The translations under genes were made by a program, and so were the position numbers. DNA of 63,314 bases, the filler included, from Nemertoderma westbladi (taxonomy: Eukaryota; Animalia; Xenacoelomorpha): NCBI GenBank assembly GCA_032718475.1. It is 3 parts of 3 records of this genome, joined end to end, with 100 filler letters (N's around TTAATTAATTAA, not from the genome) between each part and the next. Parts side by side here need not be neighbours in the genome. Positions count along the whole stretch, not along the records: positions 1 to 28,703 come from JAUCBJ010002697.1; 2 more parts are not named here. The stretch is one strand, 5' to 3'. Positions 8,338 to 56,704 of the stretch are shown piece after piece; position 1 is the stretch's first letter; the number at the start of each line of letters is the position of its first letter. The notes beneath the pieces were generated by a model. It made no database searches, was not told where the DNA came from, and worked only from the letters and a program-made list of their open reading frames with translations.

Positions 8338-8613
8338 GAACCGAAGGTCATTATGTTGCTGTTGTCGACCCTAAAAAGAAGGTAATTATGTCACTGTGTG
8401 AGGTGGAAGTTTATCACAACGGGGCTCTAGAAGTTGAAGCAAAACCACCACACCCACCCCCACCGCCACATAAACATCATAAACACCACAAGAAGCCTCA
8501 TCCAGAGGATAAATGCGACAAAGTACCGAATAAATTGAAAGGGTGTAAAAAACCACCGAAGAATTGCAAGATGTGTCGAGTTACTGGAGACCCCCACTAC
8601 TACACCTACGACG
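8338..8613 (+). CDS. Mosaic protein exon 3 (end of F-type lectin, His/Pro/Lys linker, start of VWD with GDPH)
   Basis: TCAACAG| phase 1; GHYVAV...MSLCEVEVY; PPHPPPPPHKHHKHHKKPHP; CRVTGDPHYYTYDG; donor G|GTGAGT phase 1. Confidence 0.9.
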
Positions 8614-10452
8614 GTGAGTAAATTATACCTTACAGTGTTACTGTAGTATGGAGTATCTACTGTACTATCAATATGTGATAATTGAATGTACCGACATACT
8701 GACTCACAGGGGAAAGGTAAACACAACAGTCTTACCCCCCTTAAACTCAAACAATAAAGAATCAGGGCATTGAGCCCAAATTAGTAACTGAGACCCTAGG
8801 GCCATCAAAGGATACAAACAAAACAAGTAAAAAACACAAACAAAAAAAAAACATAATAACATGCTCCACATACAGGTATGTATCGCACCCTAACCCAAAC
8901 CTAACCGCCATACACTAAATGATACCGGTAATAAACTGCACGAAAGCTAAGCCTAAGAAAATATATGACAATTTTGTCGCCATGAAAGGGGTAGGTCTAG
9001 GGCAAAATTAATTAATTTGTGAAAAATATGGTTGCGTTTCGGTGTGTTGGACCAGTACGCGCTAATCCTCGACACCATCGTCAGTTAATATTTGTATGTG
9101 CATTTCCCTCCGGATAATGATAACATGGATGTATTAAGGGTGTGCCTATTGCTCAGACATGTACATATAAAGGTCGAGGTACTGTATAATAGGTAACATA
9201 GTTACTGTATAATGAATGCCTATCTTGCGCAACTTTATGTTAGCACCCCTTTAGTCACAAGACGAGGATCGCTGCCCTAACATTATTGGATAGCATAAGT
9301 ATCCAGGTCTCACTCCCGTATAAAAGTACACTTTACACTGTGGTTTGAAAGAACTTGGCCTTCAGTTACCTGGAAAGGTCTGTTTTCCAGGTGGTATCCA
9401 TTTTTTATCTGATTCTTCCATGCCTATGCTATCATAACTTTTACGTCTTTTCTGCTGCATAAAATGAACCTAACGCACTAAATCCAAGCTACTGTATAAC
9501 TCACATACTCAAACCAAGGCCGCACAAACCCAACCTATAATGCAAGTCCAAACTTTAAAGCACAAACTTATGTGTACGCGCTTTTGAAGACCTTTAGCAG
9601 TTTAACCTGCCAAAATTTATATGTCTTTTGGTTTACAAATAGACTTTAGAAGTTGACAAATATTTAATACCAATAAACACAACATTAGCAGAAGCCAGCC
9701 TAGTGCGCGTCCATTCACCCGCTGGATATACCCGGGAGACTGGATTCTGAGGGCTTAGATTATTATTGCAGTGTAAGCTTACTGTATTATTCGATTGATC
9801 GTTAATAAATAATTTCTGACTAATATTATTCACTTTCGGGAAATATTAACAGTTCCTTTAGGACGTGGCGCTCTATCTAGGTAAACAGAGATATGACTTA
9901 TACTAATCACAACGGCAAGTCGGTAAGGCTTATGATTCACGTATGAGGCGCATTCTTTAGGAAATGCTTAGTTATCAGTCACAATCAGGCACACTACCGG
10001 TAACACACAATACTGCTCACTAATTTGCCGACCGTCAATGAATTTTATCATATATAAAGAGAACAGCAACGGACTCATGTAGGGCTTATCAAATAGCATT
10101 AAATTCACTACAAACCACAATAATATAAGTCGCAATCGCTATATATAACCAGTCTCTCTAACCTGTAGTGTATCAAGAAAATTGGGAAATTTGGGTTCTT
10201 TATAAATATTCTCCAAATAATATTCAACCAAACAACAGTAAATAGCAGTATAATAATGTATGTTGAACCGATAATGTAAGACTGAATTGAGATAAGTTGA
10301 TATGATAACAGTTATACGCTCTATAATTTAAGCCTACTAATGTTTCTTCTAAAGTATGAAAAACGAGTTGACTCTAGAGCCGGTGTTCCTGGCCTAGATA
10401 GAAACAACACAACAGTAACAAGAAAAAACAGTAAGACTGAACACTCCTAGTA

Positions 10453-10743
10453 TGATCGGCCGAATATCTCCACATCGACAGAAAAAATCGCTCTGATTGG
10501 CTTAAGCTAAACAAAGAACCATGTGTCCAATGGCCGTTTCCATGTCAGCAACCAGCTGTTAGATGTCGTAATCTGAATCATCAAGGCTAAGCTGTGTAAG
10601 GGTATTTGGTGCATTGCGGGTTTTTTGCCTTACCATGTCCGCCAAAGCACGTATATAGAAGAATGACTTTTATGTCCGTTAAAACACCTATAACGGTACC
10701 TTGCGGGCGAGGGGGACTGAGTATATCCGCAAAAGCTTTTACA
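10453..10743 (-). repeat. 3' LTR, portion shared with the truncated 5' LTR (full LTR may extend to 9573)
   Basis: No mismatch seen by eye versus 16435-16725; begins TG on the - strand directly after the purine tract. Confidence 0.85.
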
Positions 10744-10751
10744 CCGCTCCC
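10744..10751 (-). other. Polypurine tract
   Basis: GGGAGCGG abutting the TGTAAAAG LTR start on the - strand. Confidence 0.6.
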
Positions 10752-10821
10752 AGAAAATGGGATTCAAGTTTATAAATATACAAAAATCACAGTTTCTAAT
10801 ATATGTAAATACTCTAAACAG

Positions 10822-13800
10822 TTAGTCTTTCTTGCGCGGACGGCGTTTACGCAGTTTTTTAAAGCTAGCCAGAGTCCTTTTCTCTTTGGGGCGAGCCACT
10901 TTACAAGGAGGGCTATAACTTCTGGGTGAAGGGTGCAATATGATTGCATCAGAGGGTGTAGGATTATGGTCGGTGTATCCGCCAGTCGAAGTACCGGGTT
11001 GATTGACATCAACGTCAGGGGAGAGGGGTCTAACGGCTTTGAGAGCTCGTTTCAAGACAGCCGCTCTTACGGGTCCTTTACGAGTGGTCTGAACGAGGGC
11101 CGTGGGTGGACCATAGGCAGTTAGAAACCTCCGGGGTTTAATGGTTCTTTCCAACTCGCGTTCGCGGGCTCGGTATTTGTAAGGCCGTCGATACTTCTCT
11201 GCAGCTGAGTTTCTTAGGCTGAGCTTGGTCAAAGCGCGGTCTTTAAATTGGCTATCCACGTTGCGGAACGGGGTTAAAAATCGCCGGAAACATTCGAAAT
11301 GGATGAATTTATTATGTTCATCTAGCTTAGCGTGTTTGGTCCCAAGTATTAATGGATGGGCGCGTATGGTACGACTGCACACATCGGCTAGCCAACCGGC
11401 AAGTGCGGTGTTTTCAAAGATCGTGTATATAGCTAAGGAGGGACGGAGTGGAACACTCATGAAGCTATACACGGCGCCAGGTGCGGTCAATGGTCCATCA
11501 AAGTATAATCGAGAATAATGGTCTCCGTATACTTGTTGATAGTTAATGGGATTTCCGACTTTGAAATTCCATCCGTATTCCTGAAAGGCAAGATGTCCGA
11601 TGGAAGTTCGTTGCACCTTTGTAATGTTGCTAGACGTATTAGCATACATGGTGCGGAAGAAACCTCGACCTTCTGCCCAGGGAGCAATCAGCTGAGTATC
11701 AACGAAAGGGTATGGAATGTTCTCCATATTCCGAAAGTCGTTTTGGAGATCTCCATAAACAGCTGAGCCGATTTTAAGGATTCTTTCGTTGAATAACATC
11801 TCGAGTACAGGCTGGGGTAACATCGATCCATCGATGCCCATGGCCGGTTTGCGTTCGGTGTCAATGACGTAACGCTGCGCGAGTTCGAATTGTCCATGTC
11901 GGAGATTCTTTTGTGTTTCGGTGAGAGTTTCAAAAGAATAATCAATCACTTCGGAACACGCTCGAGTAAACACGTGGGTAGAACCAGCTAATCCGCGTAT
12001 GTGGATCATGCGCGTAGTTCCTAGTTCTCCGACCGGAACGCTACCTTCATTATCGTAGGTGACAACTCCATACATCTCAATAACATTAAGAGTTTCATTC
12101 CACTCCTTGGTGGCGTTCTCTAGGGTCATCCCTACTGGATGCCACAAGGTGGCGCATTGGTTAGCGTCAGGGAGATCACTATACTTCATGTGCCGAGTGG
12201 TATACGTCTCCACATTTCCATATCTTTGTATTTTCTCTTCTTCAAATAATACATCTAGATTCCAATGGACTAATCGAGTTTTGATAAATCCATCGAGATT
12301 ATAAGGAGGTTCTATATCTTTCTCGATTCGAGAAATGTTATATGGTTTTCTAAATGAGTTTACCTTTACTAACTGATCCAGATGTTTCTGCAATTGTTCG
12401 AGTTCGACAATGTCTAGAGGATTTATTAGTGGTAGAAACTTTAAATTATGCGTCGGGTCTTCTGGTTTTACCATATAATATTGAGTCAGATTAACGTAAT
12501 AAGGGTGGTCTTTAATCCCATAAAACGAGTTCTGTAAAGGTCTAGCGCGTATGTTGACATCGTGTACCATACGACGGACAAGATCCGCTCGATTGTCCGG
12601 AGGTTCAACGAGTATACCGTCAACACGAGCGGCCTCGATCGGCGGACGCTGTAACATAGGGGCGTCAGCGATGAGATTGTGCGATCCTGTACTGATATCA
12701 ACCGGTTGAGGCTGTATCGTCGCGAAGAGCTTGTCTCCGAAATGTGGAATCATCGAGGGATGACGAACGGTTTTAGAGTAGAGGTCCGTCATGAGGATTT
12801 GAGCTTCAGGTTGGGCTAAAGCGGCTTCTTCTCTCTCTTCCAGTTTCGTGTGTTTCTCCTCGATTAGATTTTCTTCCGATTGTCTCTGTAAGCGTTCATC
12901 TAAAAATTCTTGTAGAGAATACGTGCGTCCAAGCTCGATGTCTTCCTCGAGGTTTTGGATTTCTCTATCAAACTGTGGCAAGGCTAACTCCTTCACCGAT
13001 TGGACTTGTTGTTGTAATTTACGTTTCTCTAAACAATCTTGTGTTCCCTTTCCGATTTTCTGTCGAATGGCGTCTAAAGCGTTTCTTATAACGCTCTCCT
13101 CGACTTCCGTGGCGGGTTGCATCGGGTTTAATCCTGGACGATTGTAAGGATCAAAGGGCGATATTAGCTGCCCGCGTCCCAATCCGGCTAAGTAGGATGG
13201 GCGAATGTCTAACGAACCCACTACCGGAGCACCACCGATTAATTGTTCGGGTAACACTAAGTCTTTGAACAGGGAATATAGTTCGGGAGGATCAGTGATA
13301 CTGTTAGGATCAAGAGTTTGAGGTCTGACTAGGGAATGGGGAGGCCTGACCGAGTATTCCGGAACTCTGATCATGGGTTTATTCAGTGATCGTTTAAGAC
13401 GAGCGATCGTAGGTGGTACGTCGAACAGGTTTCGCTCGAAACTCCCGTACGTGTAACGCGTAAAGCTGTGTTTAGCGCAACGTCTCCGCGGATGTTTGTG
13501 TCTTTCAGTTTGTTGGTTGGGTCTAGGGCATTCGTCACAATAATACCAAAGACGTACGTCCTATAGAGGAAACGCGGGTGAACGTTCTCCAGTTTTGCAA
13601 TATTCTTCCATTTGTTCAAAACTATCCGGGATAACAGGTAGTGGACGATCGGCGGTAAGATACATCATAGTGAAATAGAGCCGTTTGAGTTCTACCACAG
13701 GGTCGTGATGTATACCTTGAGGATATCGAGTCTCTAAGTTCTGCTGACTAGCGATGTTGAGATAGGTTTCTCTCAAAAATTCTAGGTATTCGTTGAAGTC

Positions 13801-14205
13801 GATGCGTTTATCCGGTTCTTCAACGTTTTCTCTTTCCAGTCTATTACGAATAGAATTTTCGTGATCTATTCTCGGTTTATCGTTACGACTCCGCTGGGTA
13901 TGATATTTAAATAGAACCATTTCCCTCTCTGTATCTACATCGTCAGTATCATGTAAATCGATAGGATGGCCGGTAGTTAAGAAGTCCATATACGTACCAT
14001 TACGATTCGTATAGCGAGTGGTGAATTTTCGATAGTCTAATTCACGCGCAAGTTGCTCTTGGGACATCGGCGGTTCGATATAACGACCATCGTCCTCCGT
14101 AATGGTTGGATCGGCTTCACCGCGTATTAAGCTATCCACAAATGCTTGTAAAGGTAGAGTATATCGCTCCCTAATACCAAGATCATCTTCTATCAACTCC
14201 GTCAT
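10822..14205 (-). CDS. Retrotransposon accessory ORF (~1127 codons, one in-frame TAG at 13561-13563) with a WRN/EXD-like DEDDy 3'-5' exonuclease domain (~11400-12100)
   Basis: The 214-aa and 850-aa ORFs are in frame with 62 open codons between them; GVVTYDNEG (ExoI), LPQPVLEMLFNERILKIGSAVYGDL (ExoII), FVDTQ, SIGHLAFQEYGWNFK, PLRPSLAIYTIFE (ExoIII-like); basic C-terminal tail. Confidence 0.7.
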
Positions 14206-15025
14206 ATCTGCTATCTGAGTTTATTAATATCAAAATAAGTTTATATTTTAGGCGAGCGGGCGTCGCTGCCTACTTCTCTTTGCCCCCGGACAGTGGGATT
14301 CTCAGCGCCGATGTACCATCGTCGCGTTGTTTACGCCAACATGTAGCAACAGCACGACAACGATAACCGGCACAAGTCACTCCACTGTCCGTCCCAAAGG
14401 CTTGGATCCACTTAGGTTCTTTCTATAGGAGAGTTGGGCTACTTTTACAATTGCGACTAGCTACTGTAAACATACTTTAGCAGTAACATTCACCTATAAA
14501 CGCACAAATTCCACACAACTGTCACCAATTATACACATACAGGCCATTTGTTCGTTAGTCAGTGCCTTCCAGAATGTCACGTTATTACTGTGTATCCTTG
14601 GATACTAACAGTGTGCTATGTATTCTCTATGCTATGCAATGTGACAAGCTTTCTATTGTTCTCTTAACTTGCTTCTAATTCTAGCGTGGGTGTTGCTATG
14701 GTGACATTATGGAATGCTAGCGGTAGAATTAGGGTAATTCTCATGCATACAGATCTGGGATGCTATTTAATAATAATTCTTTAATTGTCAATATCCTCTT
14801 TATGCATGATTTTATTAATTTTATCGGCTATTGACTATATGTTGGAGATTCTCGCACTCTAATACACTCAATAGGATGAATCTCCGCTCCCATGATCTAT
14901 TAATTAATGGAATTTTGGGAATGTTATAAATTGTACAAAATGACAATTTATGAAATTCATTTAAAATATGAATTTGAATTTATTCCCGTGAATTTTATTA
15001 TTTGATGTTAAAATTGACACAATTT

Positions 15026-15286
15026 GATTCCAGAGCAGGTCTGGGGACATAGGATCCTTAATTCTATAAAATTGTCTTTTAAGAGTATCAGTAAGTGCTG
15101 CGATATCTTAATTGACTAGAAATTTCAAAGGACCTGAATTTTACAGATTTTTACTAAATATTAAATTAATATTTAAGATGGGCACCGATTTATTCCAGAA
15201 CTTGTCTTGGGACGTTAACCACTGATTCTAGAATTTGTCTTTCAAGTATATCGGTGGGTGCCGCGATATCTTAATCGACTAGAATT
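15026..15286. repeat. Two diverged ~100-bp direct repeats in the element's intergenic region
   Basis: ATTCCAGA...GGGAC...ATTCTA...TTGTCTTT...GCGATATCTTAAT(T/C)GACTAGAA at ~15026-15124 and ~15191-15286. Confidence 0.7.
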
Positions 15287-15835
15287 ACAGATGGTCAAAA
15301 GGTTTAACAGATTTATTTGCGTTTTACGCTACTGTTAGAGGGACATCACGCTACTATATGTATTATTTAATATAAGGTAGAAGAGCCATATCGCAAGAAG
15401 CAATGTCAGTGTGAAGAGGCAAGTCGTTTCCAAGGTCTACCCAGAGCTTGGTTTAGCCGAGACACGAGGATCTGAACTTTGCATTCCTAATACTCTGCCT
15501 ACCAATAATACTTGAATATAGTAGTGGCTTTTTTTTGTACTTTACTAAGTACGGACATTTCATCTTACTGTAGTCACGTATTTACAATATGATACGGACA
15601 GTAAGGAAAGAGAAAAATAATTATTTCTCGCCGTCGCACTAAATATATATGATAAGTAATTACGTACGTAATAAACACTAATACATTGCACTAATCTACT
15701 AAATAATCACTAAAATAACATTTTACTAAATAAAATTGAATAAAAACGATTATAATAAAGTACATAATAAAGTTCACATATAAAAATATAATAAAATAGA
15801 TAAAACAATGTAGTCATACACCCACTCCAGACGTA

Positions 15836-16434
15836 TCACGTTGGGGAGTCCCTAGATGTTTGAGGAATTAGGGAGGTGGTCGTGGGAAGAGTGTCTTGCC
15901 TTCCATAGTTTCCGGAGAGTTCTCTGTCTCTTTCCAGTAAACATAAACGACCAACTGGGCGATTGAGTTGTTGCGTCTCAAAGATTATGCCTGGCTTCTT
16001 GAAGTTACGCCGCATGACGATGAGTTCTACCGAGCGTACTAAACCATCATCCGAGATGTGGGTCTCGATGATACGACCTGTCTGCCACCGTTTACGTGGG
16101 AGGTCTGGATCTACAATAAGCACCATATCTCCGGCGCTGACGTTTTCTTGCTGCGCAAACCACTTAGTTCGAAGTTGTAGCGTGGGCAGATAATGTTTCT
16201 CGAAATGGTCAGCGAAACGACGGGATAGCAACTGCATAAGTTGCCAAGTTCGACGGCAGTATTCGTCTCCGTCGGCAATCTCCGATCGTGGGAGCATGGC
16301 TACAGGTTTCTTCAGTAGGAAGTGTGCGGGTGTTAGAGCTTCCAGGGAATCGGGACTCGATGAGACTGGCATAAGCGGTCTCTCGTTGAGATAGGCAGCT
16401 ATTTCCTCCATTAACGTCCGCAAAAGTTCGTCGG
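15836..16434 (-). pseudogene. C-terminal fragment of Bel/Pao integrase (DUF5641-like region)
   Basis: TDELLRTLMEEIAAYLNERPL...LTPAHFL...YLPTLQLRTKW...GDMVLIVD..PRKRWQTGRI...DGLVRSV; fused directly to LTR sequence at 16435. Confidence 0.9.
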
Positions 16435-16725
16435 TGATCGGCCGAATATCTCCACATCGACAGAAAAAATCGCTCTGATTGGCTTAAGCTAAACAAAGAA
16501 CCATGTGTCCAATGGCCGTTTCCATGTCAGCAACCAGCTGTTAGATGTCGTAATCTGAATCATCAAGGCTAAGCTGTGTAAGGGTATTTGGTGCATTGCG
16601 GGTTTTTTGCCTTACCATGTCCGCCAAAGCACGTATATAGAAGAATGACTTTTATGTCCGTTAAAACACCTATAACGGTACCTTGCGGGCGAGGGGGACT
16701 GAGTATATCCGCAAAAGCTTTTACA
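16435..16725 (-). repeat. 5' LTR (truncated, fused to integrase)
   Basis: Same sequence as 10453-10743; no PBS, gag, protease or RT follows. Confidence 0.85.
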
Positions 16726-17063
16726 TTATGCGATCCAGAGGTCATGGTTCGATTCCCGCACGGTTGACATGAGAGTGTCAATCAGACAAACCCCAGCTAT
16801 ATCGTGCAAACCGAAGCTATTTTAGTGTACAAACCAAAGCTATAACCAAAAAATCCAAAATATCTCACGAACTCAAGTAATATACCATAGAATACAAGTC
16901 GTAGCATATACAAACTATAGCCATAGCAAAGAAACAAACCCAATCTATGACGTACAAATAAAAATCAATTCTTTGCTATGATGCTATCGATGGGTTTCAA
17001 AATTAAATTACATAATTTAGTTTAAATCTTCCACAGTCAGTATAATGTGATGCCTTTACACAG

Positions 17064-18700
17064 GTTTGAAATGGGATTTCCAAGGCAAATGCTCATATAC
17101 CTGGACAAAGAATTGTGGTGGTAATTTGCCAAAATTTGAAGTATATGGAAAGAATCACGCCAGACCTGATCGTGTTGCGCTAAAACATCTCAAACCACAT
17201 GTGACCTTCATTCACTATGTCCAGATGGATGTCTACGACATAAATATCAAGCTTGGACCGGGATTTAAAGTTCTTGTAGATGGTATTAGCGTAAAGTTGC
17301 CGAACTACCCTATCGCAGGTAAAATATCTATCGAGAAATGTGGAAAGAATATACAAGTTGTAACAGATTACGGGCTTTATGTGATCTACAATGGAGATCG
17401 GGAAGCATATGTAGCTGCTTGTGGAAAGGGAATGAAGGGGAATGTCTGCGGAATGTGTGGAAATTACAATGGGAAAAAGGGAGACGACAACCTAAAACGT
17501 GACGGCACTGCCGCAACAGGCGATAAGAATGCTAGAACATGGGAATACGGTAATTCCTGGTTAAAAGAAAACGATGAACCCGGATGCACAAACACTGTGC
17601 CAGAAGATCCATGTTCAAAAGAAATTAGAGCTGAAGTTAGTAAAAAATGCGCGCAGCTAAAGTGTCCCTCGGGTGCTTTCTTGAATTGCCACACTGCGAT
17701 TCCACCAAAGGATACGTATGACTCATGCGTATACGATGGTTGTCAATACAAGGGGGCACAAGACCAAATTTGCAGATCTTACGAATCTTATGAAAATGCT
17801 TGCCGTAAGTCAGGCATCGTGCCAGGGCCCTGGCGAACAAAGGACTTCTGCCCTAAGGATTGCCCGGAGAACACTCATTATGAGAACTGTGCAGCGTTGG
17901 AGCAGCCGTCGTGTAACAATCCCGACATCCCAAGAATAGGCCAGGACGGAGATTGCGACACCGATGGTTGTGTGTGTGACGACGGATTTTTGGAGGCCGG
18001 ATCCACCTGTGTCCCCGAAAACCATTGCGGATGCACCGATGATGACGGCGGTTACCATGACAAAGACGATGTTTGGGGGAGCTGTGATATAAAGTACACT
18101 TGTGCAGGTCTAGATCAAATAGATGAGGAAGCCAGACGTCCTTGTGGGGAAAACGCATATTGCGGAGTTGTGAAGGAGAAGCCAACTTGTAAATGTAATA
18201 AAGGATATGGTGGCGATGGGTTTGCTTGTCACCCTAGCAAATGTACTTACGAAGGTAAAGAATATAATATCGGAGATACTTGGGGCTCTTGCACCAAAGA
18301 ATGCATTTGCAATGAAAAGGGAAGTCCTGATTGTACGGAAAAGCGTGGTTGTGGGGAAAATGCGCATTGTGAAACACTGTCTAATGGAAAGCATGGCTGC
18401 ACCTGCGAAAACCTGTATGTCGGCGATGGATATACATGCGAGAAACAGCACTGTACAACGGAAAGTGGAGAGAAGGTTGAGTTACTGGCTACTTCGGAAA
18501 CTTGTGGTGTTATTTGTGAGTGTAAGATCGGTGGAGTTATGGAATGCGTGGATAAGGATGCTTGCGGGGAGCATGCACATTGCGGGGAGGACACGGATAA
18601 TGAATGCGTTTGCGACGAAGGTTTCGATGGAGATGGATACACGTGCACATTGGAAGGAGGCGGTGGTGCTGGACTTAGTGGTGGGGCAGCTAAACCAAAG
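17064..18700 (+). CDS. Mosaic protein exon 4 (VWD, C8, TIL, three Cys-rich+EGF-like units)
   Basis: ACACAG| phase 1 continues YDG-LKWDFQGKCSY; VCGMCGNYNG; YGNSW; C8 (FLNCH..YDSCVYDGC..WRTKDFCP); TIL (CPENTHYENC..GCVCDDGF..CVPENHCGC); 3x CGE(N/H)AxC..CxC..GDG(F/Y)xC; donor AAG|GTTTGT phase 0. Confidence 0.92.
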
Positions 18701-18931
18701 GTTTGTGTCCATGCTATTTAGCTAACTGATGCTATCAATAATTATCTAATTTAATTATAAAATTAGAGTTAAAATAATATAAGAAATATTATTGTGAAAT
18801 AGTATTCATGTCTAATCATATGAAGGGCACATCTATTATTCTTATTACACAACTATATTATAATTATAATACTACCATGAATAATTGTGACAATCCATTT
18901 TCTAAATTTAACTACAGATATTTTATTCCAG

Positions 18932-19125: not shown

Positions 19126-20149
19126 GTAAGTGTAAAATATGTGGGGGGGGGGGGGGGGGGGTTTCAAATTGTTATTTAAACTTCATTATTGTAAATTTTA
19201 TGCATTATTCCCTCCTGTCTATAATAACATTACAACATTCTAGTTAACATTGCCTGTTTAATGAGGTTTCTACTGTATTACAGTACTAGGGTATTTATTA
19301 ATGAGGTTACTATTACTAGGGTATTTTTTCCTTCCCAAAGTTTTGAATTTCATACATAAAATTGTTTTTGACACGTTTGGAGCACCCACATAAAATATGC
19401 CTGAGTATATCTGTTAACAACATAAAGTTACATGGCTAATACAACCAGTACTGTTGTCACGCACATAAGCAACGAGGTGCCCTACAGTTATGGTGGCATC
19501 TCATTGATTGCCTAATCATTGATAGCAATCAATTCATAATAATATCTATCGTGGAGAAGAGGAATGTCAATAAATTAAGAATACAGTTCCATAGTACAGG
19601 AAAAACAAATAGCTTTTCTCTTTCTCCCTTATGGGTTCTTGTCGATAATACTAAGCTTGGTCGGTAAAGTACACCTCTCTTGTTTTTAATAAATAAATAG
19701 TTTTATTAATCTTCAATTTATCCAAAAATTTGGAAAAAAGAATTATTGGAATTTGTTAAATTATATAGTTTGAAGTATAAAGTTTGAAGTAGATGAAAAA
19801 CATTCATCCACACACCTAAAAGCACTGGCATTGGCTGCGTTATGTTCATCCATAAAGTAAAATTACATTGCCATTGAGAATCACAGCTAACTGTCAGTAA
19901 ACAAAATAGAATGAAAAAAAAAAAATAATAAACTTAATAGTTTTTAAAGGGGTACACAATTTATATCACACGTCGTTTAAATGTGAAAATTAGCAAACGT
20001 TGATCGGCATGCATTTAAGGTGCATCCCTGCTACTCGTGCGTGGTAACAATTACTGTACAACCAAATTACCAGCTCGCTAACCGGTGAAGGTGTCCATTC
20101 ATTTGCTGGTAATTTCCCAATTGATTTATTTGTTATTCATTATTGACAG

Positions 20150-21263
20150 ATTTATGGAGAAGGATTGTGCTCAAGCTTGTGAAGACTTAGAAAACGGTCT
20201 TATTGAAGCTGATGTCCCCCCAAGCCCAGAGCATTGCCAAGATCTTGGTGAGAATGGGGCATGCTTGACAACTCGTGCTTGGATGGAGAAATGGTGCGAA
20301 AATATCTGTGTTGGAGATTTACTTGAAGTAACGGACATCGATAAGGTGCCGCCAGAAATACCGGAGCCCCAGATTGCTGAAGTTCACGTGGTAAACGGCG
20401 ATTCGGTAGTAACATGCCCAGAGGGTTCAATGATGGCAGATTGTAAATGTAGTACATCTACATGCACTGGATCCTCCGTAGTCATCAACGAAAACCAAGA
20501 GTTAGAATGCCGAGTTGGTAATCAACTAAATGGTGAGGTGTCTGAGGCCGAGGCTGTTTGCACGGAGATGACCAGCGCTTTCGATCTATATATACCAACG
20601 GGCTACGCCGTTGGAAAGTGTGCCGCCACTGAATGCCCCTCAGACTACGTAATGATCAGTTGCAACTCCGAAGACGGTATCGACGGAAAGGGAAAAATCG
20701 AAGGAGGTAAGTGCCTCCCTAATTCAGAGAAATGCTTAGAACAAAGTACCTCGGAAGTTTCAGCTATATGTTATCGTATTTTTGATTCTACGCCCATAAA
20801 GGGTATGGTTCAAGGCGCAACAACGAATGTTGGGCCAGCAGGTGACATAGCGGCTACGGAGTGGTCTAGTCCTGCCGACTACGACATTGCGACGGCTCAG
20901 TGTCCGGAGGGTACCAATGTTATCGGGTGTTCCTGCGAAGGTGACTGCTCTGGTGTCAACCCAGGATTGGATTTCAAGAAGTGCGAAGTCACGGCAGCCA
21001 ATCACGGCCAAGTTACCGCGAAAATTCAGTGTTCAACAGCAATCTTGGATTACCGGTATGAAGGACAGGGTGGTGATGGAGGCGCAGTAGCGACGTGCCC
21101 TCAAGGCGGTGACCTCATTGGCTGCACTGCCTCCTACAACGAGGCAGCCGATGTACCTGCGGGGTTCACTGGCGCTGGAGTCACTAGCGGGACCACCTGC
21201 ACGGTGACCTGTAGCGGGTACTGCAGTGCACACGCCGTGTGTGGGATACGACCACAAAATTAA
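20150..21263 (+). CDS. Mosaic protein exon 6 (ShK-like ends plus four Cys-rich PCSK9/resistin-like modules; stop)
   Basis: TGACAG| phase 2 gives LFMEKDCAQAC completing ShK2; CQDLGENGAC..WMEKWCENIC; modules CPEG..(A/G)CxC..C..AxAxC; the six exons sum to 3738 nt (1245 aa plus stop). Confidence 0.88.
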
Positions 21264-21543: not shown

Positions 21544-22983
21544 GATTATTCGCTATTAATGTGGTATTAGTTGGAAGTATTATTATTCCTGTATAGCTGA
21601 AACTGAAAATACATTACGTGAGCGTGGAGAGTTATAAATTAAAACAAAAATCATGGCAGTTTCGTGCCTATTAGGAACCCTGACACACATTGCTTCTACC
21701 CGTCTAGATACTATAGGGTCAGAACTACAGTAGGTTCAGAAATTGCAAATGCACACTAATTAACTAGTATCCAACTTATTCTGTACGACGCCCTGTAGTG
21801 ACTCACTTCTGCGGTGAATCACTTTAAGTTAAATTATCATTGATTGATTAAATCCCACACCAATAATATTGATTATATTCGCAATCAAATAGGATAAAAT
21901 ACTTAAAACTTCAACAATAGGCATATATTTTCTAATATATGTATATTAATAAACAAAATGCTAATACAAAAAACTGCAAATTACCCCGCCTAAACATAAC
22001 AGGACGTGAATAACAATAATAAAATACAATAATAAAGACTTTATTAACAATAATAAACACTTTATTAACAATAATAAACATAACAATAATAACAAAGCAC
22101 ATAAACTAACCCTACTACAGTACTACTACACTACAGTACATCATGCCCCGGAATAATGTCGCCTTTCAGGTACCTAACACCACCCCCAAAAAAAGTGTTT
22201 GAAAAAGGTGTCTCTGGCGATATTTCACCAGTTACACTGCAGTTCATATTCTTCAACCTTATAGTGATTTGTTGGTACTGATGGAAAGCTGGCCCTGTAG
22301 GGCCTAATAATTCCAAATATGTAACATAATCTGAATTTCGTTGAAAAATAGCTGAGATCTGATCGTTCTAAAGTTTCATGGTTTTGCACCTGCGCAAGGT
22401 TATTTTATTATATGAAATAAAAACATCATATTCAAGAACATATTGCTAATGTAAGAATAGCTACATTATAGTATAATTTAGAAGCATTGGATTGTTGCCC
22501 AGCTACTTATGCGATAAACAAAATGTTCCAGAACATGGTACCGGTATATTTATTAAAGGCAGTGATTTTTTATGTCCTTTTATTATACTTTTTTTGTCCT
22601 CCTTTTTTTACGAATTGTGCATAATGACTTTTGTTGTCCCTTTAATGACTTATGTTGTCCTTTTAATGACTTTTTATGTATGTATTTCTTCAAACTGTCA
22701 GACTGCTGATTTCTGGACTGTCAGACAGTTGATTTCAACATCCCTATGCCAAAACATTCAAAATTTGTTGATTTCTGGTCTGTCGGACAGTTGGTTTCAC
22801 TATGCCTGTGCCAAAACATTCCATGATTTCATGATTTACAATTTATAGACTATGAGATAGATTTCCATATGCGCCTGTGGTAAAAGACTCTAAATTTAAT
22901 AGTTTGTGGTTGTTGTCGATAATCGATTACCACATGACGTAGCAAAACACTCATTTTATAGCCAAAAACAATTACCAATTGAT

Positions 22984-24178
22984 GGAAAGGAGCAGGTTAA
23001 GGCCGGATTTTCTAACCAAAACAATAAACAGTCACTTTACCAAATGAAGCAAAGGAGCAGGTTACAGAGGCGGGCCTTTCTAACCAAAACAATAAACGAT
23101 CATTTAACTAATTGAGGGAAAGGAGCGGGTTACAGAGGCGGGATTTTCTAACCAAAACAATAAGCAGTCACTTTACCAAATCATGGAAAGGAGCAGGTTA
23201 CAGAGACGGGATTTTCAAACCAAAACAATAAACGATAACATTACCAATTGAGATAAAGGAGCAGGTTACAGAGGCGGGTTTTTCTAACCAAAACAATAAA
23301 CAGTCACTTTACCAAATCAGGGAAAGGAGCAGGTTATAGAGACGGGATTTTCTAACCAAAACAATAAACGATCACTTAACTAATTGAGGGAAAGGAGCAG
23401 GTTACAGAGGCGGGATTTTCTAACCAAAACAATAAACGATCACTTAACTAATTGAAGGAAAGGGTCAGGTTACAGAGGCGGAATTTTCTAACCAAAACAA
23501 TAAACGATCACTTAACTAATTGAGGGAAAGGAGCAGGTTACAGAGGCGGGATTTTCTAACCAAAACAATAAACGATCATTTAACTAATTGAGGGAAAGGG
23601 GCAGGTTACAGAGGCGGAATTTTCTAACCAAAACAATAAACGATCATTTAACTAATTGAGGGAAGGGGGCAGGTTACAGAGGCGGGATTTTCTAACCAAA
23701 ACAATAAACAGTCACTTTACTAAATGAAGGAAAGGAGCAGGTTACAGAGGCGGGCCTTTCTAACCAAAACAATAAACGGTCACTTTACCAAATCAGGGAA
23801 AGGAGCAGGTTACAGAGACGGGACTTTCTAACCAAAACAATAAACGATAATTTAACTAATTGAGGGAAAGGGGCAGGTTACAGAGGCGGGATTTTCTAAC
23901 CAAAACAATAAACAGTCATTTTACTAAATGAAGGAAATGAGCAGGTTACAGAGGCGGGCCTTTCTAACCAAAACAATAAACGGTATCTTTGCCGAATCAG
24001 GGAAAGGAGCAGGTTACAGAGGCGGGTTCTAACCAAAATAATAAACAGTCACTTTACTAAATGAAGGAAAGGAACCGGTTACAGAGGCGGGCCTTTCTAA
24101 CCAAAACAATAAACGGTCACTTTACCAATCCAGGGAAAGGAGCAGGTTACAGAGGCGGAATTTTCTAACCAAAACAAC
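22984..24178. repeat. 67-68-bp minisatellite, ~18 units (AAAGGAGCAGGTTACAGAGGCGGGATTTTCTAACCAAAACAATAAAC...)
   Basis: Tandem periodicity; core shared with the MITE arm at 520-600 and with dispersed copies. Confidence 0.95.
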
Positions 24179-28803: not shown

Positions 28804-31800
28804 TTATAAACCAAAATTTGTCCTATTTTATGGCTGATAAACACTGTATTAAATATATAATATTTTGAAGATGATTACAGTACGAATACGAATTAAACGT
28901 GTCACTTCATCTCTTTGTGTTTTCCTTTATGGGCCGTTTATAACCGCCATGACCACGAAATGGTTCCAGTTTGGTAGATTAGAATATTATAGGATGCAAT
29001 TCATTAAAAAGTAAATAATTATAATATCTTAAACACAGTGAATCACTCACTAATATTGTAACTAAAATCGTATATAATTGATATTATTCTCTCAGTGCCA
29101 TCTTTGGTACTACGGATGATCTGGTTGCCAACATAATATATATAATTGTAATTTCAGGTATTTATTAAATATATACAATTAATATATATTTATTATTCCT
29201 ATCGATACCGGGTGCTTGTTTAGTTGCGGTTAACGTATACTTATAAACAATGGACCAATTAAATCAACATTATTCTAGAATAATATAATCTTGAAAACAT
29301 TATTTTTTTATCACATTGGTAGTAAAAATAAACGTTAGTGAATGATAGTGGAAGTAAGAGTGGAATTAACCGCGTTTTTTTTCAAATTAATTTTATATAT
29401 ATATTATTATAAGTTATTAAGTATACGTACTATGTATGTATTTATATAATTCGGCCAAAATATACATACAACACTGAAGATTGCTTAGATTGATGATTGT
29501 CGGAAGTGTTTAGAATACTCCAGACCTCTCCACATCGCCGTTACTAACTACTCACTGCCTTGTCTTTACCTAACAATTACTTGAGTTGTAACCCTTAAGT
29601 CTTAACGTTGTATCTCTAAGCGTAATGTGCTACATAACATGTCTGGGTCTACGTAAATTCATATTTATTATTGTTTCAAGTTTCCACTATATAAAACCAT
29701 TTTGCATAAGTTTATTTTTCTTTTTCTCATTATCCTCTAAACAACTGAGTTTCATTTTGTGCTGTTTTGTATAATTGAATCCTGGCCATCTGGAGTTCCC
29801 GATATATAAATATGCGACTTCTGTAATTACTAATAATGTATTATATATTTAGTCGGAATTGTAATTCTCATTATTTTATTGTTGTATTATTACGCAGGGC
29901 ACTTTCGGTGGTATATTTCCAGTTGGGGTGCTACTTTGATTTCGCGAATATTTGATTTCGTTGCTCTACATTAACAGTTAAGGTGCGTGTTTCACATATT
30001 AATGGAAAGGATCAGGTTACAGTGTCGGGTTTTTCTAACCAGATCGATATACTAAATTTAGGAACGCAGTTTAGAACAAAAATTTCCTTGAGGTACCGGT
30101 ACTAATAAAAAATGCAAAACACTATAAAAAATCTACCCATGCAGCACCCTACTTGTCAGGTTGTAGCAGCACCCTAATTGGAAATCTACCGCGCGGTGGA
30201 ACGTTACCTAGCAATATGAACGCCAACTTCCTAGCAAGTATAAATGTTTTCATTAATCGTAACTAATGATTTACCTTCATGCGACGATAATTATAGGTTA
30301 GGTTGTTATTTATTTTTCGGAATTAAACTCAATCTTATGATCACCCCCACCGACCCTTTTCTCGTCCAGTCTAGTAGTGTGTGTTAATACGGTTCACTTT
30401 ATTTATTTAACACTAACTAATAACGGTATCAATATGTAAGAGTTAGAGTTCTTGGTAAGTTATTTAATATGTCGAACTTGATTAAATTATTTTTTGGTGC
30501 AATTGATTGTTTAATTAATTGTTGGTTCCCCTTTGCACTACCGTTATCTTTCTCACCCGTTGTGCATTGAATATTTATTGATGGTCTTATGGGTCGAGCC
30601 ATGCACCGAGCGAAGCCATTCTATGATATATCTACAATCACTTATTCGTTTAAGTGAGAGAAATCCAATTTTTCAGTTTAAATGCTTTTCACTATTTTGA
30701 GGAAATGCCGTCTATGCCGATATTACTAAATTATTTGATTATTTATTACATGATTATAAAGTATAATTTTTTTTCACTTTTTCGTACGCTATCGAGGTTA
30801 ATAAAGAATTATGAGTTAGTGTCAAAAAAAACATTTTCCCTTGTGATATTGAATTTTTTATTGGTACTTTTTTTCTTTGTTCTTTAATTGAAAATAGAAA
30901 GAAATAGTGTCATAAATAAAATATAAATCACATTGCTTCCATAGTTACTACGATTCGAATTGTTGTACCTTTTAATAACAACTCCTGATGCTCCTTTACT
31001 AAATGTTAAATATTATTAAATTACTTATTATAATTACTATAATAATAATTATTATTATTATTTAGTATCGTGCAGCTGCAGACGCTAAAGTTGTAATAAC
31101 TGTTTAGTGTTTGGATGGATATGGCTCAACTTACGTGACATCTTTTTTAGCTCAATACGAAACATTTCTAGGTCTTTCATTGGTTTTTTTAACCGCAAGT
31201 TCCTTTAGATTGAATGGGAAATTATTTTATATTAAAGTAAGTAACTTTCTTGCCCGTGGGGCGTAAAAATTATCCCAATTCGACACTTGATTGTTTTTTT
31301 TCCTATTGAATATATCAGTTATTCTACCAGTTAGTTACAACAAAACTTGGACCATGTTCATAAATTGTGTACTACCCAGTACACTTAGAACGTTTTTCTC
31401 AGAATATCTACTCTTTTAATACGTAGGCAGAATTCTTCGAAATTGTTAACTACTAACTATTATCACTAACTATTTTCATAATTGTGCGATAAGTAGCACT
31501 TTTTCAGCTTTATTACCCTAGTATATCGAGCGAGCGCAGCGAGGGAGAGTTACATAAATATTTATGATATACATACAGGGGTCATACACGCTGAATAATG
31601 TCATTTTCATAAATGATGTACGTAATTTTGTTACTTTATGTCAATTTATCGGCGTTCTTAAAGCTTAATTATTAACTTTCATATTGTAATGTATAGGAAT
31701 ATTAATGAAATTCATATCCATTTTATGCAATTAATTGCAGATGTTAGTGTAATCAACTGTACCGTAAAGGTACATACGGTAAACAATCTTACAGTACACT

Positions 31801-31967
31801 TAGCCTGCTATGACTATCATCAATGAATAATACTAGGTGTTCTAGAAGTTCATTGTTATATTCTAAGTTAGTGATTACTTTGCAACAACGTTCAGTCCTT
31901 TAGGCCACAATGCTGCAAAGAGATTCCTTGCTGCGTTACGAGGATATCATGAGAACGCTCACAAATT

Positions 31968-32223
31968 GGCCCATGTGAAGAATACCAGACTTTCAGCCGT
32001 TATATTTCACTTTGCAGTTACCCCCATGTGAAGAATACCAGGTTTTCACCAAAAACCCAGGTTACAGAAGGGCTGAATCTAACCAAAACAATAAACGAAT
32101 TAGTATATGTACAGGTTATAAGACAGAAATAAAGATAAATAAAAAAAATAAAAAATCTTCATATATAAAATTCCAATACAAAGTCGACCGAAAAGTGAAA
32201 TTCTGGTATTCTTCACATGGGCG
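31968..32223. mobile_element. ~256-bp MITE private to copy A
   Basis: TIR GCCCATGTGAAGAATACCAGA / TCTGGTATTCTTCACATGGGC; TSD CACAAATT(G); empty site in copy B at ~42665. Confidence 0.9.
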
Positions 32224-33015
32224 CACAAATTGACATATTTTCGATGCTATTTATAGAGCTATGTTCTAGAAATCCGTGGTTATATAGATATGCTTCCAGG
32301 TTTGTCATCATAAGTCTCCACGAACGTGTTGGTATTGAGTGCAGAGCGGATGCACGCTTAGTGTTATCTGTTCAAAATGGTTACACAATGTAGTGTTTTG
32401 AATGTTTTTTAATTCCCTTTATTGTCTTATTAATGCATTGAAGATTGTAATACTTATTATTGCCTTTGTATATTATAAATTTCTGACACTAAATATACAT
32501 TTTTTGTAATGTCCTGGAAGTCAGCATGCGAATTTATTACTCTAATTTGAATTTATTGAGAAATTCGATCTCATATTACAATAAAAAATAAGTATAGTTG
32601 TAAACAATGATCTCACTCTCACCAAGGAGTGAGTGAGTGTCTGCCATGTTATGAAATCGAAGGAAACACAAAAAACTACAACTACAATTCGCGCCTAATC
32701 GCCATATGGTTAATGAAAGTACCGCGACAAATAAAAGTGAAATTAAATTAGTCTAGACTGTGCCTTATATTACCAGGTAGGTTAGGGAATAATGAAAACT
32801 TGTTAAATGCATTAATTGTCTCATTACGTTTATATTGACATGGTTGTTGCTCTTGAAATACGTGGCATTATTTAGGTTGAAGTTAACTTAAAGCATTCAG
32901 TTTAATATTCTTCCGACATCCCGTCTTTAACCCTCGGCATGACTAGCACTACAACAATGTAACCAAACTGAAAGAGTTTGTTGTTCTATTCGCCCGGGGT
33001 AACACAGAGTCCTCA

Positions 33016-36000
33016 CTACCGGTTCTCTTTAAGTGTTGACCCTTGAGTTCCTACGGACTTGTCCCGCGAACTGCATCCAGTCGAGGAGTGTCTCTTGGTT
33101 GATGTCCTTGACTCACTATTTGTTGATCGAAGTTTCATTGTTCCGTTATAATTTATTGCCTCTGTTTTGGCGTGTTGGGTATTTCGTGTTTCTTTTTCAC
33201 CGTTTTGGGAAATTTGTGCTTTTGTTTTTCTAGACAGAATTAAATCGCCAGTTGCAGCCATACGAACCTTCATCTCTGACATATCGTTAGACATTGGTTT
33301 TTTATTCGGATTATTTTTTATCAACTCACCATCGATGTAATCGTCCCATTGTAAACTGTTGACGTCTCTAGCAGGAAGAAACACCATTGAATTCTCTGGT
33401 GTTGGCGAATCTGATGATTCTAATTCTTCGGGAATGGAAGTGAGTGTGTATTGCGTGGATGACCTCTGATGTTCTGCTGTGTCTGGATCATAATATGACT
33501 CAGACAATAAATAATTTATGCTATTGATGTGTTCTGAGTCAATAAAATTCATATAAATATCATCGCTTTGAGATTGGCTAATAGGGTTTTGGTGTTCGGG
33601 TTTGCGGCTCGGGTTCGGGTTCAAGATACTTGAGATATTCCATCCTTCCCCTTTATTTATTGCACATTCTACTCGATATGGGATATCGTTCTCTAGCCAG
33701 ATATCATCTTCTGGTGAGATATCATTATCTGGCAAGATATTATTCTCTTGCGAGATATTCCCTGACGTGATATCATTCTCTGGCGCGATATCATCCTCCT
33801 GCAAGATATCATTATCTGGTTGCATGTCATTATCTGGTGTGATGTCATTATCTGGTGTGATATCATTCTCTGGCAAGATATCATTATCTGGTTGGATATC
33901 ATTATTGTTATCTTCTGCAGTACTTTTAATTATACTTTGCCGTTTGTTAAGAACCGCCGTAGACTGTGTATTATTTCGATATGTATTCAGAGGGTTATAT
34001 TGAAAAATATCGAGACATGAAAAATATCGAGAGTAAAAATAACGCGAGTAAAAACATCGAGTGTTGAAAAATAACGATAATATCGAGAGTTCAAAAAATA
34101 TCGAGAGTAAAAATATCGAGGGTAAAAATATCGAGAGTAAAAATACCGAGTGTTGAAAAATATCGAGAGTAAAAATATCGAGAGTAAAAATATCGAGTGT
34201 TGAAAAATATCGAGAGTAAAAATATCGAGTGTTGAAAAATATCGAGAGTAAAAATATCGAGTGTTGAAAAATATCGAGAGTAAAAATATCGAGTGTTGAA
34301 AAATATCGAGAGTAAAAATATCGAGTGTTGAAAAATATCGAGTGTTGAAAAATATCGAGTGTTGAAAAATATCGAGTGTTGAAAAATATCGAGTGTTGAA
34401 AAATATCGAGAGTAAAAATATCGAGTGTTGAAAAATATAGAATGTTGAAAAATATCGAGAGTAAAAATATCGATAGTAACAATTTTTTTAAATAAGGGTT
34501 GTATGATAATTTTTTTACTAAAAATGTTCTAGAACAACAATATTTATCAACATTTGGTAGCTTATAAGGTACGTGTTCTAATATAATATTTAACAATATT
34601 TATAATATTTATCAAAATTTATAGCTAGCTCTTCTTTTATAATATTTATTAAAAAAATAGCAAAAACTAGCTAGTATAATAAATCTGGTAAATGGGTACC
34701 CAAGGTGTATTACTGTACATAATGCCATTCACTTGCACTGTTTTAACCCATGCACTGCAATATTGTTCCATAATTCTAAATAAAATGCTCAAGTAAAATG
34801 CAATATTTTTACTCTCGATATTTTTCAACACTCGATATTTTTCAACACTCGATATTTTTACTCTCGATGTTTTTCAACACTCGATATTTTTACTCTCGAT
34901 ATTTTTCAACACTCGATATTTTTACTCTCGATATTTTTAATCTCGATATTTTTCAACACTCGATATTTTTCAACACTCGATATTTTTACTCTCGATATTT
35001 TTCAACACTCGTTATTTTTCAACACTCGATATTTTTACTCTCGATATTTTTCAACACTCGATATTTTTACTCTCGATATTTTTCAACACTCGATATTTTT
35101 ACTCTCGATATTTTTCAACACTCGATATTTTTACTCTCGATATTTTTCAACACTCGATATTTTTCAACACTCGTTATTTTCGATATTTTTCATCTCGTGT
35201 TATTTTTACTCTCGATATTTTTTAATCACGTTAATTTTCAACACTCGTTATTTTTACTCTCGATATTTTTACTCTCGTTATTTTTACTCTCGATATTATT
35301 CAAGTCTCGATATTTTTCACCATTACCATTCAGAGTCATATTGATTTCTTTAACTGAACTTGTTTGAAGAGACTGACTCAACTTTAGTTGTCCATTTCTA
35401 GTTTGTATCGTGTTTGGTGAATCATTTCTTACAGTCCGCCGTCTTTTGGGTGATTCTGATACTGGCGTTGCTGTGACCGGAATGCTTTGATTAGGTAGAT
35501 TATCCTTTATAGACCTGCAAGCATAACAAAAGCCCCGAGGTCGGCTAGCCAGTAATACACGTTCATCTCTTTTATTTCGTAATTCTCTAAACTCTGGTTC
35601 CTGCAACGTTTCTGCGCAATAATTATATTTGGCAAGTTCATATCTAGGATTTACTGTCACGGGTTCTGTGGAATGTTTAGTTAAATGAGTGACTGGTTTT
35701 AATCTTTTTTTTGTTAGTTATTGGGCGCGGCTTATGTGAGTATCCATCACCAATCAATTTCTTCTTTCGGCTGTTAACATTAATCACAGTATTTATATAA
35801 ACTCCGATACCGGTGTTGGACGATAGAGGTGCATTCGAGTAACTCCTTGGAATAAAAGTCTCCTTTGCTTTCAATGCTACGTACTTGTGTTGATGTTTCA
35901 GTTCCTGAGGTGACCCCACTTCCCTCCCATCTACGTGGAATATTCTGTTAAAACGAATTCGATTACTTCCGTAAAAGCTCATATTTATTGACTTTATCGC

Positions 36001-36790
36001 TGCGCCCAATAATCTACGTTCAGTAGAGGCTAGTGGTACCAGTTTTGGTGGCTGTCTGTCCTTGCCATTACGGAATATGTATATGATACAAGGTGGTTTG
36101 TCTGCCATCTTCTGCAATTTTCCCTGGTTTCGTTGGCCGGTTGGTCGGTCCACCACGAACAGTTCTCGGACTTTCCTCAGTTGATGCAAAGTTAACCCAG
36201 CCAAATGATCTTCAACATATTTCTCAACAGCTTTCAATAATTTGTTTTCAGATAAGTTTGCCGTGTCGAGGTCAGCTAACTGGGTAGCCATTGAGATATA
36301 TTTAACTTTCGCAGTGTTGTCAAATGGTTCAGAGATTTGATCTGTTATTAGCCGCAGGAGTTCCATATCACGGTGAACACTGGTCCCTATCGAAGTAGCC
36401 CTTGAGGATCGATCATCAGTGGCTACTACATTGGTGTCTCCGCCATCAGTTCCAATTTCCTTAGTCACGCCATTATTAGTGGCAACACAATTTGTGTCAC
36501 CCTCTTCTGTAACAACAAAATTCGTGTTACCATTTTCAGGGACAACACCATTCTTATCATAGTCATCTATGACAACATCATTCCTATCTCCATAATCAAT
36601 GACGAATTCATTTTTATCGTTGTCATAATTCTTCCTGTTTTCACCTCTGACAACTCTATCTGTGTCATCGTTTTCAGCGGCAACCCTATTTGGGTCGCCA
36701 TTTTCAGTGTCAACATCATTCGCCTCGCTGTTATCAGTGACAATTTCATTCGTATCACTATTATCCATGAGAAGTGCGCTTGTATCACCA
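33016..36790 (-). pseudogene. Disrupted, 5'-truncated copy of the doublecortin-domain gene
   Basis: Paralog of 43489-45895; T8 versus T7 frameshift at 35705-35712, foldback insertion at 33993-35327, cut at the duplication junction. Confidence 0.85.
33993..35327. mobile_element. 1335-bp foldback (FB/TU-like) element with ~500-bp modular inverted arms
   Basis: Arms built of GAGTAAAAATATC / GAGTGTTGAAAAATATC subrepeats; termini GGTTATATTGAAAAATATCGAGAC / GTCTCGATATTTTTCACCATTACC; TSD ATTCAGAG (33985-33992, 35328-35335); empty site at ~44440. Confidence 0.92.
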
Positions 36791-51930: not shown

Positions 51931-52041
51931 CCAGCCAGCTGATTTGCCAGCCGCAAGTTCTGGCTGATATGATCTTCAGCGATTGGTAAGAGCTCTCAAT
52001 CAGGAATACATATTACATGGTTTTCCAACAGCTAATAACTT

Positions 52042-53349: not shown

Positions 53350-53416
53350 AATTTAAGATCGTAGCTGAATGCCTATTACTATCTCCACAGTTAAATTTAG
53401 TCCAATATTGACCAGT

Positions 53417-56683: not shown

Positions 56684-56704
56684 TGGAGATCATAGTAAAT
56701 GTAA

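Follow-up and report, generated by a model that had tools for sequence, protein, structure and literature searches.

What is the third gene of this retrotransposon, which stands where an envelope gene (env) would be expected, and what might it do for the element? The question is raised by a 63,314-nt stretch of the Nemertoderma westbladi genome (assembly GCA_032718475.1; hereafter the window), whose minus strand carries one copy of a long terminal repeat (LTR) retrotransposon that is likely of the Bel/Pao class. Between a Bel/Pao-type integrase tail on one side and the polypurine tract (PPT) and 3′ LTR on the other, the window sequence holds a long accessory open reading frame, ORF3. Our results support ORF3 as a gene that belongs to the element family and is conserved in it, and profile and alignment tests indicate that one of its domains very probably has the fold of DEDDy 3′-5′ exonucleases. 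The parts of the element are given below in the direction of its strand.

16726..16730, minus strand: target-site duplication (TSD) CATAA, 5 bp, upstream copy, preceding the 5′ LTR
16435..16725, minus strand: truncated 5′ LTR, first 291 nt, with the TG start, without splice donor and without primer-binding site (PBS)
15836..16434, minus strand: integrase 3′ tail, last 199 codons (LNERPL...LTPAHFLL...W...RPVGRLCLLE), from a DUF5641 match and the translation
14423..15835, minus strand: AT-rich spacer that contains an imperfect direct repeat of 114 nt and ends at 14423 in a pyrimidine-rich AG acceptor
14206..14422, minus strand: putative leader of a spliced ORF3 RNA, 217 nt, with two upstream ATGs, from a contig join in run X4
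10822..14205, minus strand: accessory ORF3, 1127 codons plus stop, with an in-frame stop at codon 216
11356..12120, minus strand: remote DEDDy 3′-5′ exonuclease-like domain, amino acids (aa) 696-950, from profile and alignment tests
10744..10751, minus strand: PPT, GGGAGCGG, abutting the 3′ LTR
9573..10743, minus strand: 3′ LTR, likely 1171 nt, TG...CA, with a CAG/GT donor at 10163 (LTR nt 581)
9568..9572, minus strand: TSD CATAA, 5 bp, downstream copy, following the terminal CA of the 3′ LTR

The 5′ LTR remnant (16725-16435) was identical to the start of the 3′ LTR (10743-10453) at 291/291 positions and joined the integrase tail directly, the rest of gag-pol being deleted. The deletion, which had been overlooked in an earlier reading made from the DNA letters by themselves (the sequence-only reading), took the last 880 nt of the 5′ LTR, the PBS, gag, protease, reverse transcriptase (RT), RNase H and most of integrase. 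In the public run X3, 13 contigs diverged from the window sequence at 16437, as expected for a deletion junction. The position of the ORF between the integrase tail and the PPT/3′ LTR, proposed in the same reading, was borne out by the match of the tail to DUF5641 (E 3.9e-21; 75.5 bits, with a Pfam cut-off of 23.1) and by the PPT abutting the LTR. DUF5641 and the motif set of the tail are what we take to be marks of Bel/Pao; PDB sequence searches gave no integrase match. The window copy is a dead, internally deleted LTR retrotransposon, and its likely assignment to Bel/Pao comes from the integrase tail, LTR, PPT and TSD of a copy without RT.

The far end of the 3′ LTR, 9573, was placed by the terminal CA and the TSD match, without read support. 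CA followed by CATAA occurred at this single site in the 3453 nt scanned, where 0.27 sites were expected, and the chance expectation is far lower in the 230 nt past 9800; family contig depth remained high past the 291-nt match down to 9800, where the compared stretch ended. An LTR of 1171 nt and an element spanning 16725-9573 with a 5-bp TSD are likely. This length lies within, and at the top of, the range of 0.2-1.2 kb given for Belpaoviridae in the profile of the International Committee on Taxonomy of Viruses (PMC8742986). For the PPT, about 10 nt is expected in this family, and GGGAGCGG at 10751-10744 was counted as such; further marks of the family are a PBS for tRNA-Arg or tRNA-Gly, gag and pol with protease, RT, RNase H as well as integrase, and the Bel/Pao RT phylogeny. 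Likeness between the flanks was also tried as support for the TSD and was rejected, as 109 of 896 control tiles scored equally high. The spacer region (35% GC over 14206-15835) was likewise rejected as a decayed copy of the 3′ LTR, with a score of 43 and a shuffled maximum of 54.

Directly past the integrase stop, at 15838-15812 on the minus strand, TCTGGAGTGGGTGTA resembled the true PPT/LTR junction; on both strands of the window, only three other sites (~14890, 15830 and 27690) lay within three edits of that junction. TCTGGAGTGGGTGTA, which was noticed after the fact, may be an ancestral element end predating the gain of ORF3, or a second PPT.

The frame of ORF3 (14205-10822) contained 1128 codons with two stops, one internal and one terminal, versus 41-85 stops per frame in the remaining five, so the frame is not a product of chance. 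The internal stop, codon 216 (13563-13561), breaks the window copy, which had been taken as intact; the gene itself is real. All the motifs named in the sequence-only reading were found where it had put them, including VVTYDNEG at 12066-12043 (D718 at 12054-12052), KIGSAVYGDL at 11775-11746 (D819 at 11751-11749), PLRPSLAIYTIFE at 11451-11413, and FVDTQ, SIGHLA and YGWNFK, as well as the C-terminal basic tail at 10860-10828. A charged helical region spans about aa 385-465. Neither a transmembrane segment nor a hydrophobic signal core was present in ORF3 (maximum 19-residue Kyte-Doolittle mean 1.21), and ORF3 is therefore not env-like, in agreement with that reading. Only about 70 nt separate the ORF3 stop from the PPT, which leaves no space for the end of a nested element, and no second copy of ORF3 was found in the window.

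Evidence that other copies preserve ORF3 came from public sequencing runs. Six of the seven runs, from four studies, contained part of the stretch, and four were compared, one per study, with X2, X6 (share 0.07) and X7 (share 0.00) left out. The run search listed no RNA run that contained the stretch, a result with no bearing on expression. In X1, possibly the source sample, 49,738 contigs were placed, and the summed depth over full element bins was 71,000-1,320,000 versus 22 on the unique flank; in X3 it was 52,000-668,000 versus 16. Summed contig depth was used here to show abundance and gives no copy number. High family depth was common to the integrase tail, spacer, ORF3 and LTR, and the family is abundant in all four runs compared.

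At the codon 216 stop, more than 99% of contig depth differed from the window in all four runs, and the stop is close to private to the window copy. Variants were assessed among the 40 best supported of 1484, which are no random sample; 26 of the 40 lay in ORF3, and after the row of the stop codon was dropped the other 25 were scored. In this set, 19 of the 25 differences were synonymous against an expected share of 0.29 (p 1.7e-6, transition-weighted model). Third-position differences made up 15/18 downstream of the codon 216 stop, 4/7 upstream of it, 4/4 in the nuclease-like domain and 3/3 in the integrase tail. The pattern points to purifying selection during transposition; the synonymous bias, together with the differing stop codon in other copies, shows ORF3 to be conserved.

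Copies joined across deletions were also seen. Among the joins listed (15 of 38), those within ORF3, such as 12309/14676 and 12531/13520, were found in X1 and X3, while the join 9914/10127 was found in X4 and X5 only; many deleted derivatives exist in the family. In X5, which carries a second organism label, the family was detected over 27/30 bins, and it may extend beyond one species.

A further link between ORF3 and the LTR was provided by one X4 contig (depth 493) among the joins listed, which connected place 14404 to 10163. The 19 letters between these two places in the contig matched 14405-14422 at 13/19 by eye. On the element strand, the join leads from the CAG/GT donor at LTR nt 581 to the pyrimidine-rich AG acceptor, which precedes the ATG by 217 nt, and GT and AG at both ends have a chance probability of about 0.004. 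The depth of X4 climbed about 9- to 20-fold on the bins of host VWD exons, where X1 and X3 were flat, which fits X4 being RNA. If X4 consists of DNA, the join would stem from a spliced RNA that was retrocopied; in either case it ties ORF3 to this LTR in another copy. Intact copies probably express ORF3 as a protein of its own, translated from a spliced subgenomic RNA, which is the usual route of env expression.

Homologs of ORF3 are rare. Among 1.84 billion representatives searched with HMMER, one homolog was found, P0001 (E 1.1e-5, 29% identity over 171 columns), a protein of 648 aa from a 9449-nt contig in ENA with the shared Glu-variant exonuclease domain at its N-terminal side. P0001 has the motifs D-x-E, KxGS...DL, DTQ and Y-x3-E in common with ORF3, and on the shared stretch it matched PF01612 (DNA_pol_A_exo1) at E 0.2, with 11.9 bits and a cut-off of 23.6. 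It also contains three gag-like CCHC-type knuckles that match retroviral nucleocapsid at E 1e-4, and is probably another retroelement accessory protein. No further homologs were found for aa 420-830 of the 912-aa part (0/2559 candidates), for the P0001 domain (only P0001 itself among 1303) or with a two-sequence profile (0/2182). Related loci were absent from metagenome contigs (0/15 and 0/182 stretches) and viral contigs (0/289), the PHROGs search gave noise only, and the phage (E 3) and plasmid (E 7, on a rnd gene) matches in tblastn were not significant.

Several comparisons, each weak, named the same family for the domain. In the ESM Atlas features, PF01612 clusters made up 25/30 matches for the window protein (0.92) and 25/30 for P0001 (0.94), the others being unnamed fungal clusters. 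The two best NCBIfam matches of the domain among 18,950 models were both RNase D (E 0.002 and 0.017). With a profile built from 33 bacterial PF01612 domains, ORF3 scored 11.6 bits and P0001 13.8 bits, versus maxima of 3.6 and 1.1, respectively, in 500 shuffles each; hhalign gave a probability of 94% (E 8.7e-8) over 77 columns around ExoII. D819 and VDTQ aligned with EDL and IDTQ of RNase D in all three alignments, which locates ExoII; with cheap gaps, D718/E720, D819 and Y927/E931 lined up with RNase D and P0001, and the BLAST alignment to P0001 favoured Y927/E931 as well. Since the family had been named in advance, the agreement of these weak tests is stronger than any single score. Of the WRN/EXD/MUT-7-like exonuclease proposed in the sequence-only reading, a DNA_pol_A_exo1/RNase D-like domain is supported by Atlas, NCBIfam, the profile and P0001, at the level of DEDDy exonucleases at large rather than of WRN/EXD/MUT-7 specifically. 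Structure prediction from the single sequence gave a predicted local distance difference test (pLDDT) of 29 with AlphaFold. The model built from a PF01612-rich alignment, with a pLDDT of 61 (core >79), resembled RNase D, Egalitarian, Rrp6, EXD2, WRN and Nibbler, but this is circular, and the model shows compatibility with a DEDDy fold, no more.

With these observations, we propose that ORF3, as a third gene in the env position, would encode a nuclear DEDDy-type 3′-5′ exonuclease that trims RNA ends, and that this trimming likely helps the family to blunt small-RNA silencing; we give this reading a probability of roughly 0.4. As a separate protein, ORF3 would act in trans for all copies, the deleted ones included. 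Its steps differ in strength. Catalytic activity, with Glu as the fourth metal ligand, stands at about even odds; nuclear location is suggested by the basic tail; and RNA tied to silencing as the substrate is the least supported step. According to Rodriguez et al. 2017 (PMC5408684), DEDDy enzymes trim the 3′ ends of structured RNA and single-stranded DNA, and a mut-7-like link to silencing is raised for the ORF3s of rotifers. The further claim that, in a Bel/Pao lineage, env was replaced by a Glu-variant DEDDy exonuclease that is spliced and nuclear and suppresses piRNA/siRNA silencing in trans is doubtful.

A number of results weigh against the proposed RNA-trimming function. ORF3 had no match in Pfam, staying below the gathering cut-off of PF01612; its 912-aa part gave no Pfam match with E up to 1 and showed no HRDC or helicase domain, and PDB sequence searches gave no exonuclease match. 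The shared-feature count of the window protein in the Atlas, 167, fell just below the mark of 170, and shuffled proteins reached 0.9 in 4-10% of cases. The support from the 33-domain profile spans the ExoII core alone. The register with D718/E720 needs a 29-aa insertion relative to P0001, and an alternative tool alignment used D755-Y-S and Y913 instead, which would be a dead site; the PF01612-rich model also put ExoI on D755, because its alignment dictated so, and is no arbiter of the register. At ExoIII, the expected Y-x3-D is Y927-x3-E931, with Glu also in P0001, a correction to the sequence-only reading. The ExoII core is firm and the ExoI register ambiguous, and because of this ambiguity and the missing ExoIII Asp the domain is not counted among canonical DEDDy enzymes. 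To these are added the non-random choice of the variants scored, the splice join seen in one contig of one study with its acceptor placed by eye, and the label ‘DNA?’ of X4, which is a guess. No contig piece joining integrase and ORF3 in another copy was present among those listed, no homolog with genomic context came from the metagenome, viral-contig and profile searches, and in rotifers the presence of ORF3 had no clear effect on copy number in the parts consulted (PMC5408684).

The ambiguous active site leaves room for a pseudo-nuclease of DEDDy type, which would serve as an adaptor or decoy by binding RNA and leaving it uncut. Like Egalitarian, EXD1 or Maelstrom, such a protein would direct the element's RNA to the germline or titrate factors of the piRNA pathway. 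The change of the ExoIII Asp to Glu in both the window protein and P0001, the alternative register without D-x-E, the long insertions within the domain and the charged helical region, which suits partner binding, all speak for such a protein. There are precedents in the exonuclease-homology domain of Egalitarian, which binds RNA without its catalytic residues (PMC13186709), and in EXD1 and Maelstrom, inactive DEDD derivatives (PMC5408684). We nevertheless consider it somewhat unlikely, as four acidic residues and a Tyr are equivalent in two proteins of only 29% identity, which fits metal binding, and rotifer ORF3s with an Asp-to-Glu change (DEED) were judged possibly active (PMC5408684).

If ORF3 is an active exonuclease, its substrate could instead be DNA, with trimming of cDNA 3′ ends or proofreading before integration. 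PF01612 includes the WRN and Pol I proofreading domains, the exonucleases of Dada and KolobokD have been proposed to process DNA 3′ ends (PMC3706591, PMC9587614), and the basic tail fits nuclear entry. This role is unlikely given that ORF3 is separate from gag-pol and probably spliced, with no evident route into the particle that makes cDNA, and that its best profile matches are RNase D. LTR integrases process cDNA ends themselves, which also counts against it. A further possibility is that ORF3 is a passenger without a role for the retrotransposon, whether taken up from the host or left over from another element, or that its likeness to exonucleases is due to chance. The second PPT/LTR-start look-alike past the integrase stop (~15830) hints at a composite origin, P0001 is the one homolog found among so many representatives, and all domain scores are weak. 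Such an origin or a chance likeness is decidedly improbable in view of the synonymous bias across ORF3, the join from the LTR to the leader, the high family depth on both the integrase tail and ORF3, the matching TSDs around the whole unit and three independent profile methods that name one family on two proteins.

The RNA-trimming exonuclease that we favour has its closest parallel in bdelloid rotifers, where DEDDy ORF3s with the DEED change were described in the Juno and Vesta LTR elements and in Terminons, and RNA 3′-end processing and a mut-7-like role were discussed (PMC5408684); reviews repeat this description (PMC5718144, PMC6431247, PMC6338049). Like the proteins of Juno/Vesta and Athena/Terminons, ORF3 is a separate RNase D-like DEDDy reading frame (PMC5408684, PMC6431247), and like those of the rotifer LTR elements it lies between pol and the 3′ LTR, is not env and has one catalytic Asp replaced by Glu. 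By analogy, ORF3 would work like the rotifer ORF3 exonucleases. It differs in that its carrier has a Bel/Pao-type integrase tail, that Asp is replaced at the fourth position (ExoIII) and not at that of DEED, and that ORF3, at 1127 codons, has a long N-terminal stretch in addition to its charged helical region and basic tail; coiled coils are absent from the rotifer DEDDy ORFs. The splice-like join and the abundant family are likewise particular to the present case. Unlike the Rrp6-like exonuclease-HRDC ORF3, no HRDC follows the exonuclease (Pfam, 912-aa part).

Among other systems, the env-bearing Belpaoviridae (Roo with an F-type env, mosquito elements with a Chuviridae-like glycoprotein) also carry a third gene downstream of pol (PMC8742986, PMC13524379), but ORF3 has a nuclease-like domain and a basic tail in place of a signal or transmembrane segment. 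Dada (DEDDy) and KolobokD (DEDDh) provide transposon-borne DnaQ-like 3′-5′ exonucleases as accessories (PMC3706591, PMC9587614); both are DNA transposons, Dada having the domain inserted within its transposase. With the cellular DNA_pol_A_exo1 proteins (RNase D, WRN-exo, EXD2, Nibbler/MUT-7, Rrp6, Egalitarian), ORF3 shares the order ExoI-ExoII-DTQ-ExoIII and weak profile matches, and differs by scores below the Pfam cut-off, Glu at ExoIII and long insertions.

Regarding novelty, which the sequence-only reading had claimed for an exonuclease as Bel/Pao cargo, DEDDy ORF3 cargo of LTR elements in general is already in print (PMC5408684), and the claim stood for Bel/Pao, where none was found. The gene content of Bel/Pao is given as gag, pol and occasional env only (PMC8742986 and, in the parts drawn upon, de la Chaux and Wagner, PMC3118150), and the word ‘exonuclease’ is absent from the main text, as available, of PMC3118150, PMC13524379 and PMC8220671. 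No Bel/Pao exonuclease was found by title and the start of abstracts, a search with supplements, subscription journals and Repbase outside its scope. Novelty lies in the Bel/Pao host, in the divergent protein lineage and in the spliced form.

With this locus, exonuclease cargo known from rotifer Juno/Vesta reaches a Bel/Pao-type family and a protein lineage that is divergent and nearly an orphan, and a purifying-selection signal and a splice-like expression route are added to the rotifer work. Repeated capture of DEDDy domains by unrelated transposons suggests a common selective benefit. If env was indeed swapped for a silencing suppressor, this would explain the expansion of the family and provide an animal counterpart of viral silencing suppressors, as part of a pool of exonucleases that retroelement classes have in common, the knuckle-bearing P0001 among them. 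The abundant family and the separable 255-aa domain make it testable whether the protein is a nuclease or a decoy and whether it acts for or against silencing.

Other features of the window, which is animal DNA by its VWD-C8-TIL-EGF exons, satellites and a non-LTR RT, were as follows. In the flank beside the 5′ LTR (16726-16760, plus strand), a tRNA-like B-box, GGTTCGATTCC, was observed, and this flank is perhaps a tRNA-derived short interspersed nuclear element; inspection by eye showed no 5′ half to match it on the other flank, no tRNA genes were found in the window by ARAGORN and no Rfam families at 8500-17500. The retrotransposon sits about 330 nt upstream of the first VWD-C8-TIL-EGF exon of a host gene, on the opposite strand. 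Large exons of this mucin/zonadhesin-like gene, together with a Cys-rich exon without Pfam match, occupy 17051-18721 and 20082-21263 (plus strand).

An 8-kb segment was duplicated at 28804-36790 and 38462-45895 (minus strand) with 96-98% identity. It contains a long intron-poor ORF of 861 aa (43489-46074) with acidic repeats and a weak doublecortin-like match (E 0.001-0.006), and its first copy is interrupted at 34000-35319 by an inverted array of 16/17-bp repeats, possibly a foldback element. A 25-bp satellite of more than 200 copies with strong GC skew extends over 46173-51932, and further arrays of 68-bp and 66-bp satellites lie at 22972-24177 and 56164-56684, respectively. Frameshifted fragments of a non-LTR reverse transcriptase (RVT_1, E 2e-5 and 7e-4) are present at 53397-54698 on the minus strand.

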